A stretch of 64,000 nt of DNA. Origin: a virus. Location of the stretch: positions 1 through 64,000 of IMG/VR virus record IMGVR_UViG_3300017917_004503. The stretch is one strand, 5' to 3'. Under the pieces are notes generated by a model, which saw nothing but the letters and a program-made list of their open reading frames with translations, searched no databases and had not been told where the DNA came from. The position numbers were made by a program, and so were the translations under genes. The stretch's first letter is position 1; every line of letters starts with the position of its first letter. Shown in pieces: positions 4,081 through 59,215 of this stretch.

Positions 4081-5432
4081 AATTAATAATTTTCGATTTG
4101 GATGGGGTTTTAATAGAGGCTAAAGACATTCATTTTTTAGCTTTGAATCGTGCTCTAGGTGAATATGCTATAGATTGGGACGAACACATTTCAGTTTACG
4201 ACGGTTTAAAAACCGAACAAAAACTAGAAATGTTAAATAAAAGGAAAGGTTTACCCAAAGAAGAATTTAACCAGATTTGGAAAGATAAACAAAAATTCAC
4301 TTTAGAAGAATTACAAAAGTTACCTTTTAATAAAGATCTATATGAAACTATAAAGCTGCTCAAAGAAGAAGGGTTTAAGTTAGCTGTTTGCAGTAATAGT
4401 ATCAGAAGAACTGTTTATTCTGTTCTTTGTAAACTATCTCTGATGGATCTATTTGATCTGGTGTTATCTAATGAAGATGTTTTGAATAGTAAGCCGCATC
4501 CAGAAATATACTGGAAGGCTATGTCTAAGTTAAAATGCCTACCTGAAGAAACACTCATAGTCGAAGATTCACCATACGGGCTATTGGCAGCTTCTAGAAG
4601 TAATGCAAACATATTAAGAGTCAGATCACCAAAAGACGTTACATACGTTAACATAAAAGATTCCATTAATAAAACCAATCAAGAAAATAATATGAGAACA
4701 CCGGCTTGGAAAGATGAAAAAATGAACATATTAATACCTATGGCGGGAGCTGGTTCTAGATTTGAGCAGGCAGGATATAGCTTTCCTAAACCTCTTATCG
4801 AAGTTAAAGGCAAACCTATGATTCAAGTCGTGGTTGAAAATCTTAACATAGAAGCTAATTTCATATATGTCGTTCAAAAATCACATAGGAAAAAGTATAA
4901 TCTAGATGCTCTTTTGAATCTAATAACTCCAGGATGTAAGATAGTGGAAGTGGATGGTATAACGGAAGGAGCAGCTTGCACAGCTTTAAAAGCCAAGGAG
5001 TTCATAGATAACGAGTATCCTTTATTTTTTGCTAACTCAGATCAATATGTAGAATGGGATTCGAACGAGTTTATGTACAAAATGAACGAATCGAACTCAG
5101 ACGGGGGAATAGTTACTTTTGAAGCAACTCATCCCAAATGGTCTTTTGCTAAAGTGAACGAAAATGGGTTGGTGGTCGAGGTAGCAGAGAAGAATCCGAT
5201 ATCTAATATTGCAACGGTTGGTTACTATTATTGGAAGAAAGGATCAGATTTTGTAAAGTATTCGGAGATGATGATTGAAAGAAATATAAGAGTTAATAAT
5301 GAATTTTATGTTTGTCCTGTATTCAATCTTGCAATAGAAGAAAACAAACAGATTAGGACATATCAAGCAAATAAAATGTGGGGATTAGGAACTCCAGAAG
5401 ATCTTAATTATTTTCTAGAAAAATACAAATGA
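4077..5432 (+). CDS. Fusion: HAD-family phosphatase + sugar-phosphate nucleotidyltransferase-like domain
   Basis: FDLDGVL, CSNS, KPHPE, VEDS (HAD); IPMAGAGSRF...PKPLI, TEGAACT, NSD, AEK, GLGTPEDL (NTP transferase fold). Confidence 0.85.
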   Translation: MKLIIFDLDGVLIEAKDIHFLALNRALGEYAIDWDEHISVYDGLKTEQKLEMLNKRKGLPKEEFNQIWKDKQKFTLEELQKLPFNKDLYETIKLLKEEGFKLAVCSNSIRRTVYSVLCKLSLMDLFDLVLSNEDVLNSKPHPEIYWKAMSKLKCLPEETLIVEDSPYGLLAASRSNANILRVRSPKDVTYVNIKDSINKTNQENNMRTPAWKDEKMNILIPMAGAGSRFEQAGYSFPKPLIEVKGKPMIQVVVENLNIEANFIYVVQKSHRKKYNLDALLNLITPGCKIVEVDGITEGAACTALKAKEFIDNEYPLFFANSDQYVEWDSNEFMYKMNESNSDGGIVTFEATHPKWSFAKVNENGLVVEVAEKNPISNIATVGYYYWKKGSDFVKYSEMMIERNIRVNNEFYVCPVFNLAIEENKQIRTYQANKMWGLGTPEDLNYFLEKYK

Positions 5433-5884
5433 TTTTAATTTCACATAGAGGGAATATAAATGGACGTTTCGAGTCATGTGAAAATGAGCCTACGTATGTC
5501 GATGAAGCCATTAAAGATGGATATGATGTAGAAGTTGACGTTTGGGTTATAGATGGTGTATTATACCTTGGGCACGATAAGCATCAATATGATGTTGATT
5601 TGAGATGGTTTAGAGACAGGTTAGAAAAACTTTGGATCCATTGTAAAAATGTTGATGCCATTAATTTTTTCAGAGATTCTAAATACAGGTTTAATTATTT
5701 TTGGCATGAAACAGACACGATAACATTAACATCTTTAAATTATATTTGGGCTTATCCAGGTAAACAACCAATAGAAAAAAGCATAGCAGTTTTACCAGAG
5801 ATCTTTTCAGACACATTGGATAAATGCTCTGGGGTCTGTAGCGATTATGTTTCGAAATATAAAAAATCCGAAAATATTTTATAA
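5429..5884 (+). CDS. Small GDPD/PLC-like phosphodiesterase
   Basis: ISHRGN, EN, DVEVDV, LGHD, WIHCKN, GVCSD. Confidence 0.7.
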   Translation: MILISHRGNINGRFESCENEPTYVDEAIKDGYDVEVDVWVIDGVLYLGHDKHQYDVDLRWFRDRLEKLWIHCKNVDAINFFRDSKYRFNYFWHETDTITLTSLNYIWAYPGKQPIEKSIAVLPEIFSDTLDKCSGVCSDYVSKYKKSENIL

Positions 5885-15144: not shown

Positions 15145-15612
15145 ATGGAGTCAGAAAATTTAGATCAAGAACAAAACAAAAAAAAATTAGGTGATAAGAT
15201 ATTTGGAGCACATAACAACCCCACTAGGGATACAGATTTCGATGAAACCTTTGAGATAGACCAGGGCCACAAATTTCTAGAAACCCATTATGACGAGGAA
15301 GACTATCTATATCAGAAAAAGTTAGAAGAAGCTGTCTATGAAGCTTTTCAAACTTCTAGATGGTTTCCTTTGAGTTATAAGAAGAAAATACCTAAGGATT
15401 TAATACCACATCTTTTTCAGGAAGTATTAGATAAGCTGGATGGCACTGAATTTACATTTTCTGAAAAATTTGTCTGTATTTGTGACTATGTACAAATACC
15501 CTATGCTAAAGCTTATGAGATCACTCCAATTAAATATAGAGAAATTATAATTAACGAGCTCGAGGTTAAGTATAAAATCCTATCTAAAAAGAAAATTAGA
15601 AGACTTTTCTAA
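15145..15612 (+). CDS. Hypothetical protein, possibly gp33-like late transcription co-activator
   Basis: C-terminal FVCICDYVQIPY...ITPIKYREIIINEL has a gp33-like hydrophobic pattern; function tentative. Confidence 0.35.
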   Translation: MESENLDQEQNKKKLGDKIFGAHNNPTRDTDFDETFEIDQGHKFLETHYDEEDYLYQKKLEEAVYEAFQTSRWFPLSYKKKIPKDLIPHLFQEVLDKLDGTEFTFSEKFVCICDYVQIPYAKAYEITPIKYREIIINELEVKYKILSKKKIRRLF

Positions 15613-51613: not shown

Positions 51614-51635
51614 ACAAAAAATAAGATTTAGGTTA

Positions 51636-51676
51636 AATATATAGTAGAAAGTTTTCGTTCCCTATTGGGATATATA
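51636..51676 (+). promoter_or_regulatory. Tandem late promoter motifs
   Basis: AATATATA 51636 and GATATATA 51669. Confidence 0.65.
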
Positions 51677-51699
51677 ATAAGAATAAAAAAAACAAGACC

Positions 51700-54255
51700 A
51701 TGGATTTTATAAACCAAGTGAAAAAATTAAAAGAGCTAACTAAATCACCTGAAGTTAGACAAATCTGCGAGAAATATCTTAGCGGATCAAATGAGGTCTC
51801 AAAGGAACAGGTAGAGGCCGTTATTAATGAACAAGCTACTCCTGATGTTAAGAATCATTGGGATTCGATTGCTCAAGAGCAATTACAGGCTTCTAAAAAA
51901 GCCGCTCAAGCTCTTATGGAATCTTGGGGAGGTTTCGGAAGAGGATCTTCGAATTCTGGTTCTTATAAACCTTCGGTTAAGCAAGAAGAAAACACTTCAG
52001 CTCTTTTAGAGAATCTTAATACTATATCGATTGAAGATAACAACGCTAAATCTTTTGTTGAAGCTCAGAACTTAAAAAATCTTGGGATCTTAGAATCTAT
52101 TAACAAGATTAAAGGACTTTCTATTTCTGAATATCCTAAAGTTAAAATAGTTTGTGAGCAATACTCTAACTTAATCGTTAACAAAAACATTCCTGAGTTT
52201 TCTTTAATCAATGGATTTATCTCTGAAATGGAGTCTTTTAAATGGGACGTATCTATATTACCAGTCATAGAAAATCTAAAAGAAAAATCTTCTAGATTTT
52301 CAAGAGAAATCGAAGTTGCTAAAGTTATCGAATCTATAAAAACTAGTGGATCAGCTTCTTTTTATTCTGACTTGTCAGAATCGCTAAATTCTTGGTTAAT
52401 CTCTGAAAATAAATCCTCTGGATTATTAGCAAAAGAAATTAGTAAATGGTCTTTCAATCCTGTCGTTAGAAATCTAATCAATTTCTTAAATGCTAATGAA
52501 GCAAGTAACACATCTAAGCTGGAGTTACCTGTGAATGCTCAAAACGAGTCAAGGGTTTCTAGAATTTTTTCACCTATTTTAATCGAAGGTGAGACTACAT
52601 ATTTCACCGCAGGAAAGAGTATCTTCCAAATTAAAGATAGCTCGATAAAAAGATTAAATGAAAAAGAGATCGCTTCAGTTCCAGGAGAGTATATTTCTTT
52701 GGTTAACGCTTGTTTAAAACCTTATGTTCAAATTTCAGAAAGCGGAGTTAAAATATCTCTAGGTAAGAAATCTGTTAGCATTATCGAAGAGAAAGAAGAT
52801 GTTTCAGTTTATCTTGGTAAATCTAGATTAAACTTTAGATCAGTTGCAGAACTTGCTAAAATACTTGGTCTTGAATCTAGCAGCCATTTCGGAGTAAATG
52901 AGTCACAAGTAGTTGGAGATATTCTTAACATCTATACTAACTTCAGAAATATAGTAGAGCTTGATTTCGCTAAAAACATTTCGTCTAATATCTACGAAGG
53001 TGTTTCGGTTAATCTTATTAAATGGGATAATAATATCTTCTTACAGAGAATAAACGATGCAATGAGAGAAAATTCTGTTTATAAAGTTAATGGATCTCAA
53101 GCCGTGAAAATGGTTAAAGATTTCTTAAGATATGACATATCAGAGGGCTTAACTGAATTCTTGGATGGAGAACAGAAGATCAAGTCTATTATGGTAAATG
53201 ATAGAACTAAGGTCCTTGAAAACATCTCTCGTGTTGAATCAGAAGTTAACAAACTAGAGACATTGATGGAAAGCAATCCTCTTTATGCTGCTTCAAAGGA
53301 AATAAAATCAGCTCATGGATTATTAACCAGTGAACTTTCAGTTCTTAGAGAAAAATGGAATCAGATTAATCTTGAGATCTCTAAGATAGAATCAGAACCT
53401 AATATAGTATCAGATCTTTTTGAAGATCAAAAATTCAATATTGGCGATCTAGTTAAAATTAAAGAATCAGGTGAAACCGGAAAGATTATTTCTGTTGATG
53501 GAAGTTCTGGCAGATATACAATCCTTTTAGACAATGGAAGAACTTCGGATTACATGGTTAATGATATAGTTGATCTTGAAGAAGCATTAGCTCAAGCAGC
53601 AGAAAGAAACGAAGAAAAAGCTGGTGAAGATAGATCAGAGGAAGAAGGATCAGAAGAAATGAAGGAGTCAAACAACCTCAATAAATCTAATCTTTCAATC
53701 GAAGAACAGAAAAAACTTTTAAAAACTTTTTCAACAGGTCATTCTTTTTCTAAAGCTCCAGAAGACGAGAACGAAGAAATAGAAATGGAACTTGATAGCT
53801 TACATGGATACAATGTAACTATGAATGAAAAGAATCAAACAACAGCTAAAGCACCAGGCGATAGTAAATTAGAATCAGGTAAAGATGCTAATAAAAAGAA
53901 TCTAGCAACTGCACCAGGATCTCATAAAAAAGAAAAGGCAAAGGCTGAAGGTGAAGATTTATTAAGCGATAATGCACCTGAAACTAAAAAGAAAACCGAA
54001 TTTGATGGTAAAGATGCTGAAGGATCTAAATATGAAATCGGATATAACATCAGAGAAGGTAAAGCCGAAGACGAGGGTAATATGGTAGAAGCTCCTGAAA
54101 AGGGGAAAAATGCTAAAGAAACAACTGCTAAGGGTAACTTAGAAAAGATGATGAATTTGGCCGAGGCTCCAGGTAAAGAAGGTAATATTGATTTCGAAGT
54201 AAACGATGAAATGGGATATAACATTCAAGAATCCGACGAAGTAAAAAAAAACTAA
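51700..54255 (+). CDS. Large prohead core/scaffold-like protein with KOW/SH3-like domain and acidic repeat tail
   Basis: Coiled coils, FNIGDLVKIK..GETGKIISVD, repeated xAP and GYN[IV]xxE motifs; two late motifs upstream. Confidence 0.5.
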   Translation: MDFINQVKKLKELTKSPEVRQICEKYLSGSNEVSKEQVEAVINEQATPDVKNHWDSIAQEQLQASKKAAQALMESWGGFGRGSSNSGSYKPSVKQEENTSALLENLNTISIEDNNAKSFVEAQNLKNLGILESINKIKGLSISEYPKVKIVCEQYSNLIVNKNIPEFSLINGFISEMESFKWDVSILPVIENLKEKSSRFSREIEVAKVIESIKTSGSASFYSDLSESLNSWLISENKSSGLLAKEISKWSFNPVVRNLINFLNANEASNTSKLELPVNAQNESRVSRIFSPILIEGETTYFTAGKSIFQIKDSSIKRLNEKEIASVPGEYISLVNACLKPYVQISESGVKISLGKKSVSIIEEKEDVSVYLGKSRLNFRSVAELAKILGLESSSHFGVNESQVVGDILNIYTNFRNIVELDFAKNISSNIYEGVSVNLIKWDNNIFLQRINDAMRENSVYKVNGSQAVKMVKDFLRYDISEGLTEFLDGEQKIKSIMVNDRTKVLENISRVESEVNKLETLMESNPLYAASKEIKSAHGLLTSELSVLREKWNQINLEISKIESEPNIVSDLFEDQKFNIGDLVKIKESGETGKIISVDGSSGRYTILLDNGRTSDYMVNDIVDLEEALAQAAERNEEKAGEDRSEEEGSEEMKESNNLNKSNLSIEEQKKLLKTFSTGHSFSKAPEDENEEIEMELDSLHGYNVTMNEKNQTTAKAPGDSKLESGKDANKKNLATAPGSHKKEKAKAEGEDLLSDNAPETKKKTEFDGKDAEGSKYEIGYNIREGKAEDEGNMVEAPEKGKNAKETTAKGNLEKMMNLAEAPGKEGNIDFEVNDEMGYNIQESDEVKKN

Positions 54256-54410
54256 GTCGTAATTTTTACTTCGCACCGAAAGATAAGAATCAAAATTCAC
54301 CGGGACAAAAATTTGTAGATCCTATAGAAGGTAGAATGAGTAAAGCTCCAACAGGAAAGGAATCTGAAGAAATAGAGACTGATTCTGATTCACAGGAAGA
54401 TTCTAAATAA
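54252..54410 (+). other. -1 frame 52-codon extension of the 51700 gene behind A9C slippery run
   Basis: GTA AAA AAA AAC TAA; -1 frame reads LSRNFYFAPKDK...MSKAPTGKESEEIETDSDSQEDSK*. Confidence 0.7.
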
Positions 54411-54419
54411 TTTTAACAT

Positions 54420-54448
54420 GAAAAGAACGTAAAACCTACGTTCTTTTC
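54420..54448 (+). terminator. Intrinsic terminator
   Basis: GAAAAGAACGTA-AAACC-TACGTTCTTTTC followed by TTTT. Confidence 0.75.
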
Positions 54449-54452
54449 TTTT

Positions 54453-55962: not shown

Positions 55963-57561
55963 ATGGCCGGTTTTGTAAATAATAACGATCCCCAACAGTC
56001 ACCAGTAATTACCAGAATTAGAGATTCTGTGAGAAAGCTGAGCACTTTCGGGATGAAGTATGATGATATGGTCATACGAAACTCTCAGGCAGTTGGTGTT
56101 ACTGAAGCAGCATTCTTAAACAAGAATAAATCCAATGTTGAGGATGAAAGTATGCTATGGACTCTTGCGAAGCAAGATATTACATCAAAGCAGTATGTTT
56201 CATATTTCGATAAAGATTATAAGGGTAAAAGAGATTACCTAAGAAAATTCTCTCTTAATCCTGAAATAGAATGGGTTTTAGACACTGTGTGTGATGAGAC
56301 TATTTCTTACGATCCTGCCAATTTTTTTGCTTATCCTGATTTTTTAGACCTGTCAGACATCAACGAAAAACTAAAGGATTCTCTTTATGAGACGTATCGA
56401 AAACTATATGATGTTTGGGGATTCTCTGATGATATAACTGCATGGCAGTATTTTAGACAATTCCTCGTTGATGGATTTCTTTGTTTCGAAATTATCTATG
56501 ATAATGAGGGAAAGAATATAATAGGATTTAAAGAATTAGATCCTGTTACTATAGTACCTAGCGTAGAAAAGCAAGTAGACGGAAGTTTTTTAAATACCTG
56601 GACCCAATTTCCACAGGATCCAAGAAGAAGACGTGTTCTATATGATCCCCAGATTATTTATATCTCGTATGCTAAGGGCAATTCAATTTCCAGAATAAGT
56701 TATATCGAAAGATTAATTCGTCCTTATAATATCCTTAGAATCATCGAATACACCAGAATTATCTGGTCTGTTATGAATGCTTCTTTTAAATTGAAGATGA
56801 CTGTTCCTATTGGTACTAAATCCCAACAAAAAGGAATGCAAACTCTAGGAGAATTAATGAGCATCTATAAGGAAGACGTTCAATTGAATGATGAAAGTGG
56901 TGAATTGTTTATAGACGGAAGACCTAAAATTCAGTTTTACAAGAATTACCTAATGCCTTCTGGAGTAAACGGAACGCCAACAATTGAACCTTTAACAACA
57001 GAGGGTCCAAACTTAAATGACCCTGCTCCTTTATCATATTTCTTTGATAAGTTTGTACAAGAATCTAAGGTACCTCCATCAAGATTCACTGGTCCAGATG
57101 GAACTAATGCTTCGACCTACACAAATGCTGCTGAGGGATTGGATAAAGAGGAGATTAGATTTGCTAAATTTGTAGAAAGACTTAGATCTATATTCCAGGA
57201 GATATTAACTAAACCTCTGTGGATACAAATGGCTAAAAAATATCCTGAGTTAGAGAAGGACTTTATGTTTAAGAGCCAGCTAGGTCTCGATTATTTTTCA
57301 GATAACCCGTTTAAAATAAACCAAGAAATTGAAGTAATTAATAAAAGAAAAGAATCAGTAACAGCTATGTCAGGTTTACTTGATGATGAGGATAAACCCT
57401 TTTTCTCAGTTCCTTTCCTAATTGAAAATTTCTTAGGAATTTCTAGACAGGATATTGTAGCAAATAAAGAAGCCAAAGAAAGGAAAGAGAAGGAGAAAAA
57501 GAAAGATAGTAAAAAAGATGAAGGCGAAAAAGAGGGTGGAGAGGAAAGCATAACTTTATAA
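55963..57561 (+). CDS. gp20: Portal protein, paralog 1
   Basis: FRQFLVDG, GFKELDP, SYIERL, YF..K..VPPSRF, EEIRFAKFVERLRSIF. Confidence 0.88.
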   Translation: MAGFVNNNDPQQSPVITRIRDSVRKLSTFGMKYDDMVIRNSQAVGVTEAAFLNKNKSNVEDESMLWTLAKQDITSKQYVSYFDKDYKGKRDYLRKFSLNPEIEWVLDTVCDETISYDPANFFAYPDFLDLSDINEKLKDSLYETYRKLYDVWGFSDDITAWQYFRQFLVDGFLCFEIIYDNEGKNIIGFKELDPVTIVPSVEKQVDGSFLNTWTQFPQDPRRRRVLYDPQIIYISYAKGNSISRISYIERLIRPYNILRIIEYTRIIWSVMNASFKLKMTVPIGTKSQQKGMQTLGELMSIYKEDVQLNDESGELFIDGRPKIQFYKNYLMPSGVNGTPTIEPLTTEGPNLNDPAPLSYFFDKFVQESKVPPSRFTGPDGTNASTYTNAAEGLDKEEIRFAKFVERLRSIFQEILTKPLWIQMAKKYPELEKDFMFKSQLGLDYFSDNPFKINQEIEVINKRKESVTAMSGLLDDEDKPFFSVPFLIENFLGISRQDIVANKEAKERKEKEKKKDSKKDEGEKEGGEESITL

Positions 57562-57562
57562 G

Positions 57563-59215
57563 ATGGCAGGATTTTTAGATCTATTTAAACCAAACGAATC
57601 TGCTTTAGGTAACATTCTTAGAAACCTAGGCAAAGTCTCCAAATTTGGGATGGAGTACGATGATATGGTTGTTCGTAATTCTCAAGCAATAGGTAAAAGC
57701 GAAGGATCCTTTTTTAATCAGCAGGGGACTGGGTTTACTCAGGATGATGCTTTTTATTGGACTCTTTCTTATCAGGATACGAAGGTAAGAAAATACATAG
57801 CTTATTTTGATAAGGATTATATTGAAAAAAGAAACTTTCTGAGAAAATTTTCACTCAATGGTGAGATAGAATTTATTTTAGATACTATCACTGACGAATG
57901 TATAACCTATGACGATAGAAATTTTTTCGCAAATCCTTCTTTCATAAATCTTGATTTGAAAGAGAAAATTCTAAATAAAATAACTTCACATTACAATCGC
58001 CTTTATAACATTTTTGGATTTCAGAATTCTATTTTGGCTTGGCAATTATTTAGACAGTTTCTTATTGATGGATTTTTAGCTTTTGAAATAATATACGACA
58101 ACAAAGGAAAAGAAATTATTGGATTTAAAGAATTGGATGCAACCTCTTTGCAGCCAGCAGTAGAAAGAGTTGGTGAAAATGAGTACAAACAATTTTGGAT
58201 TCAATACCCAAAGAATCCTCAGATGACTAGAAAACTCACTAATGAACAGGTTATCTATATTTCTTATGCCAAGGGTAATAGTATTTCCAGAGTTAGCTAT
58301 ATAGAAAGATTAGTAAGATCATATAATATTTTGAGAATCATGGAGAATTCCAGGGTAATCTGGAATGTTATGAATGCTTCTTATAGATTAAAGTTTGTAA
58401 TACCAACTGGAAGCCAGTCTCCTCAAAAAGCTATGCAAACATTAGGACAGTTAATGTCAAATTATAAAGAGGAGATAAGCATAAATGATGCTTCTGGTGA
58501 ATTGACTGTAAACGGAAGACCTAAAGTCCAATTTTACAAAAATTATTTATTTCCTGAAATGAATGGACAATCTCCACAAATTTCATCACTAAATCCTTCC
58601 GGTCCTGATTTTAACGTTATGGAAAATGTTGTTTACTTCTATAATAAGTTAAAAATGGACTCTAAACTTCCTTATGCTAGATTTGCAGCTAGAAGTGCAG
58701 GTCCTTCTAATTATAAGGTAAGTATTGATGCTCTTGAAAGAGATGAGATACGTTTTGAAAAGTTTCTCCGTAGATTGAGATCTATATTTCAAGAAATTTT
58801 GGTTAAACCTCTTTATATACAAATGTGTTTAGATTTTCCTGAATTATCTAGAGATAGAAGCTTTAAGGTTAATCTTGGATTAGATTTTCACAGAGAAAGT
58901 GAATTTGAAGAAATGGTTCAGCTTTCGAATTACACTAAAAGAAGTGAATTTATCAAAGGACTCTATGAATTTAAAATTAAGGCTGGTGATGAGGAAAAGC
59001 CATATTTTGATAATGACTTTCTAATTCAGAGATTTCTAGGTCTGACTCCAGATCAGATTAAAATGAATGAAGAATATAAGAAGAAAGAGGAAAAACAAGC
59101 ACCACAAGCTAAACCTGCCAGTGGAGAAGGCGAATCACCAGAAGGAGAAACGTCAACCCCTCCAGAGGGAGAAGCTCCAGAGGGAGAAGCTCCGGAACCA
59201 GAAGTAACACTTTAA
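57563..59215 (+). CDS. gp20: Portal protein, paralog 2
   Basis: FRQFLIDG, GFKELDA, SYIERL, YFYNKL...LPYARF, RDEIRFEKFLRRLRSIF. Confidence 0.88.
   Translation: MAGFLDLFKPNESALGNILRNLGKVSKFGMEYDDMVVRNSQAIGKSEGSFFNQQGTGFTQDDAFYWTLSYQDTKVRKYIAYFDKDYIEKRNFLRKFSLNGEIEFILDTITDECITYDDRNFFANPSFINLDLKEKILNKITSHYNRLYNIFGFQNSILAWQLFRQFLIDGFLAFEIIYDNKGKEIIGFKELDATSLQPAVERVGENEYKQFWIQYPKNPQMTRKLTNEQVIYISYAKGNSISRVSYIERLVRSYNILRIMENSRVIWNVMNASYRLKFVIPTGSQSPQKAMQTLGQLMSNYKEEISINDASGELTVNGRPKVQFYKNYLFPEMNGQSPQISSLNPSGPDFNVMENVVYFYNKLKMDSKLPYARFAARSAGPSNYKVSIDALERDEIRFEKFLRRLRSIFQEILVKPLYIQMCLDFPELSRDRSFKVNLGLDFHRESEFEEMVQLSNYTKRSEFIKGLYEFKIKAGDEEKPYFDNDFLIQRFLGLTPDQIKMNEEYKKKEEKQAPQAKPASGEGESPEGETSTPPEGEAPEGEAPEPEVTL

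Follow-up and report, generated by a model that had tools for sequence, protein, structure and literature searches.

The 64,000-nucleotide window analyzed here makes up the first 64 kb of a viral contig of 151 kb (IMG/VR record IMGVR_UViG_3300017917_004503, ~52% complete), which is AT-rich (34.5% GC) and derives from a T4-related virus with relatives among the huge phages. On its plus strand, an open reading frame (ORF) of 851 amino acids (aa) at positions 51700–54255 ends with the codons GTA AAA AAA AAC TAA and thus contains a run of nine adenines (A9; 54243–54251) with the frame-0 stop codon TAA (54253–54255) directly 3′ of it. The question raised by this locus is whether the protein always ends at that stop, or whether a part of the products is carried past it in the -1 frame through recoding at the A-run. 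An earlier note on the window had proposed the latter, with two isoforms formed by ribosomal or transcriptional slippage, and the comparison with homologues supports this proposal, as 65 of 69 distinct sequences require a frameshift. We consider it likely that the A9 run is a recoding site that gives rise to two isoforms, with slippage of RNA polymerase as the most likely cause.

In the window, the -1 frame encodes one lysine plus 52 further residues (LSRNFYFAPK...QEDSK; 54249–54410) and terminates at 54408–54410, and a long isoform translated into this frame would comprise ~903 aa. Past the stop of the extension follow an intrinsic-terminator-like hairpin and a T-tract (54420–54452). The hairpin, with a 12-bp stem at 54420–54448 and a folding energy of approximately -14.6 kcal/mol, was found by direct folding; the strict/simple consensus terminator scan did not call it. 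The earlier description of the ORF end, of a -1 frame that remains open up to a terminator, and of an extension that continues the motif and the acidic composition of the protein itself agrees with these observations. The motif in question, xAP, is present in five copies in the frame-0 tail and in two more in the extension, which has an acidic end, and occurs almost nowhere else in the 151-kb genome. The probability that a frame of 53 codons is open by chance at this composition was estimated from base frequencies to be roughly 1–2%, and the genome contains five A9 runs, about the number expected by chance, none of them being exceeded by a longer run and three being located inside ORFs. Because of this open-frame probability and the chance-level count of A9 runs, the window sequence taken alone was no more than suggestive. 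The two other in-ORF runs, at 15178–15186 (...QNKKKLG...) and at contig positions 66652–66660 (G000:C1; ...IFEKKISS...), lie in ORFs that are apparently intact.

It is the comparative data that settle the reality of the site. A search with the 851-aa protein retrieved 44 related viral loci (50–81% identity), and a search with an alignment of extension peptides retrieved 79 viral and 43 metagenome loci. The site is reached by 160 loci, all of which carry the feature and which collapse to 69 distinct sequences. The run consists of nine A's in 61 of these and of ten in the remaining 8, and it is never shorter. A net -1 shift is needed to reach the conserved tail in 65 of the 69 sequences. The most common arrangement among them is T-A9-C-TAA (43 sequences), followed by T-A9-G-TAA (8), G-A10-T-TAA (6), and T-A9-G-TAG (4), whereas T-A9-C-TAG, T-A10-TAA, and C-A10-GCT-TAA were found once each, as was G-A9-CCC with a frame-0 stop 35 nucleotides (nt) downstream. 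The earlier note had suggested looking for homologues with a conserved -1 ORF, and had regarded homologues that are always fused in frame as evidence to the contrary; the opposite of the latter was observed, with only 3 of 69 sequences fused versus 65 of 69 requiring the shift, from independent metagenomes. Since all 69 homologues keep A9 or A10 and 65 of 69 keep the shifted open frame, we regard the recoding site as very probably real and conserved across the clade.

The four exceptions all retain the A-run. In three distinct sequences of the class C-A9-CCCC (L098, L102, and L161) the tail is fused in frame. In the fourth, one distinct sequence shared by three loci (L094–L096; IMGVR_UViG_3300010885_086412, 3300012017_001125, and 3300013372_004496, region about 1440–1660), the upstream gene terminates sooner, with two stop codons after ...HGYNSTMNNEE, and the tail forms a separate ORF of 73 aa, which has its own ATG, starts with MSSNKILDFFSY, and is in frame through the A9 run. 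In a tree of the conserved part of the protein, the T-A9-NTAA form is present in all deep branches, and the fused form is placed, with 100/100 support, in a nested position next to two shift-requiring forms, each remodelled in its own way. From this placement it follows that the shift-requiring state is ancestral and the fused state derived, and that the A-run survived every remodelling of the site.

Selection acts on the run itself, as the pattern of sequence variation indicates: neighbouring synonymous sites have diverged by ~50%, yet all nine A's are invariant. AAA is the only lysine codon used within the run. Of 17 other invariant lysine columns, by contrast, 14 use AAG in at least two sequences, and the three that are also exclusively AAA are located within the first 15 codons. 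The synonymous third base of the valine or leucine codon before the run is always A as well. Two overlapping heptamers, A_AAA_AAA and A_AAA_AAC, can be read at the site in the window, and positions 1, 8, and 9 of the run, each of which is dispensable for one of the two, nevertheless never vary. The run starts at codon position 3 or 2 and its flanks differ among the sequences (T, G, or C before it; C, G, A, or T after it), with a total that is always nine or ten. In 63 of the 65 sequences that require the shift, the codon next to the last sense codon of the run is a stop (TAA or TAG), and this stop is kept even at the cost of a residue change from S to G or D in the -1 frame. The heptamer A_AAA_AAC, which the earlier note had put forward as the slippery sequence, is present in the window, but the emphasis placed on it was probably mistaken because what the homologues conserve is nine or more consecutive A's whose codon phase varies.

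Downstream of the run, the pattern of divergence argues that the -1-frame extension is under purifying selection. Across the first 37 codons after the run, the mean pairwise divergence at -1-frame codon positions 1, 2, and 3 was 0.21, 0.13, and 0.51, respectively, and in the 26 sequences compared the -1 frame contained no stop codon, whereas the other two frames contained one to eight. In the alignment of the extensions, 14 columns are invariant, among them S, NFYF, G, F, G, KAP, and GK; the strongly conserved tail has the pattern SRNFYFAPK ... KAPxGK plus an acidic end, and the extension peptide shows stronger conservation than the frame-0 tail in front of it. In all 65 sequences that need the shift, the -1 frame is free of ATG, GTG, and TTG from its upstream stop through the end of the run, which excludes separate initiation for these sequences. 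Direct folding also revealed a hairpin followed by a T-run approximately 20–65 nt past the stop of the extension in 23 of 25 representative relatives, the exceptions being L018, with a weak hairpin inside a longer extension, and L104, which has none. As the stem sequences differ among the relatives, the terminator-like hairpin is conserved in position and not in sequence. No terminator-like element was noted between the frame-0 stop and the stop of the extension.

These data bear directly on three explanations that would do without recoding. The true gene could be one continuous ORF with ten A's that appears interrupted through a homopolymer sequencing or assembly error, the sequencing error being the main alternative named in the earlier note, and homopolymers are indeed error-prone and two A10 versions exist in the databases. 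This reading is effectively refuted, since many samples and assemblies, independent of one another, show A9 in a total of 61 distinct sequences with up to ~50% synonymous divergence, the other A9 runs of the genome do not break their ORFs, and conservation extends to the frame-0 stop that adjoins the run. Replication slippage at the DNA level, with mixed populations of A9 and A10 genomes and a long isoform made mainly by the A10 subpopulation, appears unlikely. It could draw on the same two database proteins (P0001 and P0002), whose contigs encode ...KKKLSRNFYF in frame and one of which shares a 90% cluster with A9 versions ending in ...KKN. These contigs may also be assembly errors or transcript-derived, however, and all 43 metagenome loci and the ~117 viral loci that reach the site are in the shift-requiring or lineage-typical state, none of them being T-A10-CTAA. 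A mutational switch would, moreover, not require that the run survive in the fused lineage. Finally, an extension that is never joined to the 851-aa protein, being either a decaying relic or separately translated, is very improbable. The lineage with a separate 73-aa ORF, its own ATG, and an upstream gene that ends earlier shows that the tail can exist in such a form, but the divergence concentrated at third positions and the lack of stops in the 26 sequences speak against a relic, and the lack of -1-frame start codons up to the conserved residues in all 65 shift-requiring sequences speaks against separate translation.

A recoding mechanism that would account for these observations can be outlined as follows. 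Standard decoding would yield the 851-aa protein ending in ...VKKN, and a fraction of the products would enter the -1 frame for 52 more residues, resulting in an isoform of ~903 aa with two further xAP copies and the acidic end. Host RNA polymerase would slip on the nine-A template during late transcription, and some of the mRNAs would consequently contain ten A's, which ordinary ribosomes would read straight through (...VKKKLSRNFYF). Ribosomal -1 slippage on A_AAA_AAA or A_AAA_AAC beside the stop may contribute or even dominate. From the sequence comparison we infer the production of the two isoforms, the ratio between them, and the mechanism.

Between the two routes of slippage, we lean towards RNA polymerase. 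Bacterial polymerases slip at runs of nine A's, and a conserved 9A run together with conserved overlapping ORFs marks slippage-dependent genes of insertion sequences (IS) (PMC1088944, PMC5009743). With regard to the 9A/9T slippage class of Baranov et al. (2005), the gene has the run (A9 at 54243–54251; A9 or A10 in 69 of 69 sequences), the arrangement is conserved in 65 distinct sequences across deep branches, and it is the length of the run that is maintained and not its phase, even in the fused and split lineages. Seven A's would serve a ribosome, yet none of the 69 sequences has fewer than nine, and the side on which the extra A's are placed differs among the classes; nine is the length at which bacterial polymerases slip. 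A further argument is that RNAalifold detected no conserved RNA pairing on either flank of the site (110 nt downstream and 80 nt upstream). For this reason, the signal appears to be the run, with or without the adjacent stop. An 11-bp hairpin at 54237–54273 that includes part of the A-run (z = -2.1) was considered as a stimulator and rejected, as it is present in the window's sequence only; relatives use other synonymous codons for NFYF, which makes this hairpin private to the window. In addition, the most common heptamer ends in C, and on E. coli ribosomes A_AAA_AAC and A_AAA_AAA are much less shift-prone than A_AAA_AAG (PMC5009743), while poly(A) tracts of nine or ten A's allowed little product from ribosome sliding, which became robust only with A11 (PMC4363877).

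Several points weigh against this preference, and they largely coincide with the case for classical ribosomal -1 frameshifting, in which tandem tRNA slippage on A_AAA_AAA and/or A_AAA_AAC, helped by a slowly decoded stop, would occur on nine templated A's. We regard this as a genuine possibility for the main mechanism, but as the less probable of the two routes. A_AAA_AAA is in the correct phase in every shift-requiring class, and most classes also offer A_AAA_AAC or its G, A, or T variants. The frame-0 stop comes directly next in 63 of 65 sequences, and TAG is found where TAA was lost, despite the resulting change in the -1 frame. It is a long-established principle that shifting is favoured where a stop codon adjoins a slippery run, and some phage -1 sites, such as that of lambda G/GT, need no downstream structure. 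The -1 ORF under purifying selection without a start of its own is what a frameshifting cassette should contain, and IS1 frameshifts on A_AAA_AAC without a known stimulator (PMC4066793). On the other hand, a conserved stem-loop, pseudoknot, or upstream Shine-Dalgarno-like element was not detected in the region searched; the missing stimulator lowers the probability of a ribosomal mechanism, although not every bacterial or phage site has one. The maintenance of at least nine A's while flanks and codon phase change, the prevalence of AAC instead of the far more shift-prone AAG as last codon (PMC5009743), and the retention of the run in the fused and split lineages, which need no ribosomal shift, likewise speak against it. 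Apart from the ribosomal alternative, the AT-rich genome tolerates the two other A9 runs inside ORFs (starting at 15178 and at 66652 of G000), and Baranov et al. caution that AT-rich organisms may suppress slippage at 9A runs (PMC1088944). The contigs of P0001 and P0002, whose in-frame A10 may represent rare DNA variants as well as the artefacts mentioned above, indicate that some length variation at the DNA level or some assembly error exists. Moreover, the evidence for recoding is all comparative.

The persistence of the run in the fused lineage also counts in favour of a recoding site. An mRNA of this lineage with one additional A would reach a stop four codons later and give a short form of the protein, and the run could have been kept there because an extra A would yield this short isoform. 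One may speculate that the A-run is a two-way isoform switch that the clade cannot lose since both proteins are required: in most lineages the short form would be the default and polymerase slippage would supply the long form, in the derived fused lineage it is the short form that would come from the retained run, and in a further lineage the tail has become a separate small protein. We place this idea somewhat below an even chance. If it is correct, this would be, as far as could be established, the first transcriptional slippage conserved across a clade that sets the stoichiometry of a late phage protein, and the 52-residue tail would be a detachable module of short motifs whose dose matters.

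The arrangement can be compared with several known systems. The 9A transcriptional-slippage genes include those of IS elements and Staphylococcus aureus mapW (PMC1088944) as well as Shigella spa13 and mxiE (PMC5009743). They share with the site described here a nine-A run in the overlap of two ORFs, the conservation of run and arrangement among non-identical homologues, a C-terminally extended product, and independence of RNA structure. Unlike these transposase and secretion genes, the present gene is a late gene of a T4-related huge phage, and its transcription would be carried out by the host core polymerase with a phage gp55-type sigma factor. For dnaX, the tau and gamma isoforms are generated in E. 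coli by a ribosomal -1 shift on A_AAA_AAG and in Thermus thermophilus by transcriptional slippage on A9 (PMC5009743). As in dnaX, one gene with an A-run would encode two isoforms that differ at the C-terminus, and the default isoform differs among related lineages: the fused lineage (L098) would produce the long form by default and the short one by slippage, and the majority of sequences the reverse. In contrast, the shifted product of dnaX is the shorter one, and the E. coli gene carries a Shine-Dalgarno-like element as well as a stem-loop, neither of which was found here. Among late phage genes, T7 gene 10A/10B likewise uses a -1 shift to make a minor, C-terminally extended product. The lambda G/GT pair is similar in that a late gene gives rise to a minor product with a C-terminal extension of tens of residues through a -1-type event near the end of the ORF (PMC5009743). 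Both of these sites are ribosomal and contain no nine-base homopolymer, and their products are a capsid protein and a tail chaperone, neither of which matches the 851-aa protein. IS1 insA-insB has the same heptamer, A_AAA_AAC, near the end of the upstream ORF and no established stimulator, but differs in that it contains A6C instead of at least nine A's, shifts with low efficiency, and encodes a transposase (PMC4066793). The tssM gene of Citrobacter rodentium (PMC4256274) resembles our case in that transcriptional frameshifting is reported to produce two length variants from an interrupted gene; it is a chromosomal secretion-system gene, and the event is described as the rescue of an interrupted gene, which differs from an arrangement conserved throughout a clade.

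This kind of recoding is known, but it is new to both the gene family and the phage group, and no published report of recoding in either was found in the literature searched. The clade consists of uncultured phages from environmental metagenomes. As gene callers end the protein at 851 residues, nearly all entries of the clade in the databases lack the long isoform, and the 155 nt downstream are left as an unexplained gap. With 69 sequences, several codon phases, and one fused and one split lineage, the site offers a clean natural case for comparing polymerase with ribosomal slippage, and the delivery of a conserved motif array in a disordered tail at two doses would provide a handle on the function of a late protein.

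The extension peptide had no match in 50,697 deposited phage genomes. The nearest deposited relative is LR756500.1 (L168), a 462-kb uncultured huge phage, in which the homologue (region 231334–237203, reverse complement) is located directly upstream of a gp55-like gene but stops right after the KOW-like domain and has no acidic tail, A-run, or extension. Because this homologue is devoid of them, the tail and the recoding site represent a clade-specific addition. The order of the 851-aa homologue followed by the gp55-like gene is conserved in LR756500.1.

An AlphaFold model of the 851-aa protein, of modest confidence (mean predicted local distance difference test score, pLDDT, of 63), contains a helical N-terminal region, two beta-rich domains (residues 285–460), a long coiled coil (491–564), a small KOW/SH3-like domain (584–625), and, from about residue 681, a disordered acidic tail with repeated xAP and GYN motifs. 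These motifs mark no other protein of the genome, except for the low-complexity end of the second of two portal paralogs. The disordered motif array of this late protein would, through recoding, come in two lengths. The 851-aa protein had no match in PHROGs and no named cluster in the ESM Atlas, and its only hit in Pfam was a sub-threshold match to a MutS2/Smr-associated SH3 domain at residues 581–611. Foldseek searches against the Protein Data Bank (PDB) returned nothing at E ≤ 0.001, with local matches limited to KOW/PWWP-like folds for the small beta domain, and a viral structure library yielded only uncharacterised myovirus proteins, including those of the Tenacibaculum jumbo phages PTm1 and pT24. 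The label “scaffold-like” given to the protein by the earlier note therefore received no support from Pfam, PHROGs, or the fold search. In these searches the protein showed no similarity to known scaffolds, and its gene does not lie beside prohead protease or major capsid genes. A scaffold could have late-promoter-like motifs, a coiled coil, and an acidic disordered tail such as those seen here, but none of these features is specific for one. The protein is probably expressed late, and a role in virion assembly is a weak guess.

Upstream of the 851-aa gene are two late-promoter-like motifs on the plus strand (51635–51677), AAATATATAG at 51635–51644 and GGATATATAA at 51668–51677, which may act as promoters. 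In a comparison of the upstream 70 nt of L001–L042, their position was kept in 18 relatives. The leader also contains an A8 run (51685–51692, plus strand), 8 nt before the ATG, with A7–A9 runs located 8–10 nt before the ATG in relatives. Based on the conservation of the late-promoter-like motifs and of this A-rich leader, the gene is probably expressed late. The leader run is exactly A9 in several relatives; it could serve translation as an A-rich leader or be a second place at which the polymerase stutters.

Two loci of the clade deviate elsewhere in the gene or in its tail. In L035 (IMGVR_UViG_3300008113_006113, about 4330–4450), a TAG occurs at codon 463 and homology resumes in another frame with a stretch missing, which reflects either a broken gene copy or an assembly error; the A9 site and the extension are intact in this locus. 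In L018 (IMGVR_UViG_3300024239_000013, about 5376–5610), the extension lacks the usual stop and continues for 78–79 codons through the terminator region, probably as a result of a recent loss of its stop.

The genes just downstream of the 851-aa gene encode a late sigma factor of the gp55 type, a head-completion protein resembling gp4, a gp2-like protein, and two gp20-type portals in tandem, and this group is surrounded by ligase, clamp-loader, and nucleotide-metabolism genes. No tRNA genes were detected on the contig. The portal paralogs, at 55963–57561 and 57563–59215, are both full-length and match PHROG 213 (E = 3e-54 and 2e-63, respectively). The second of them ends in the low-complexity sequence EAPEGEAPE, which resembles the xAP motif in the tail of the 851-aa protein.

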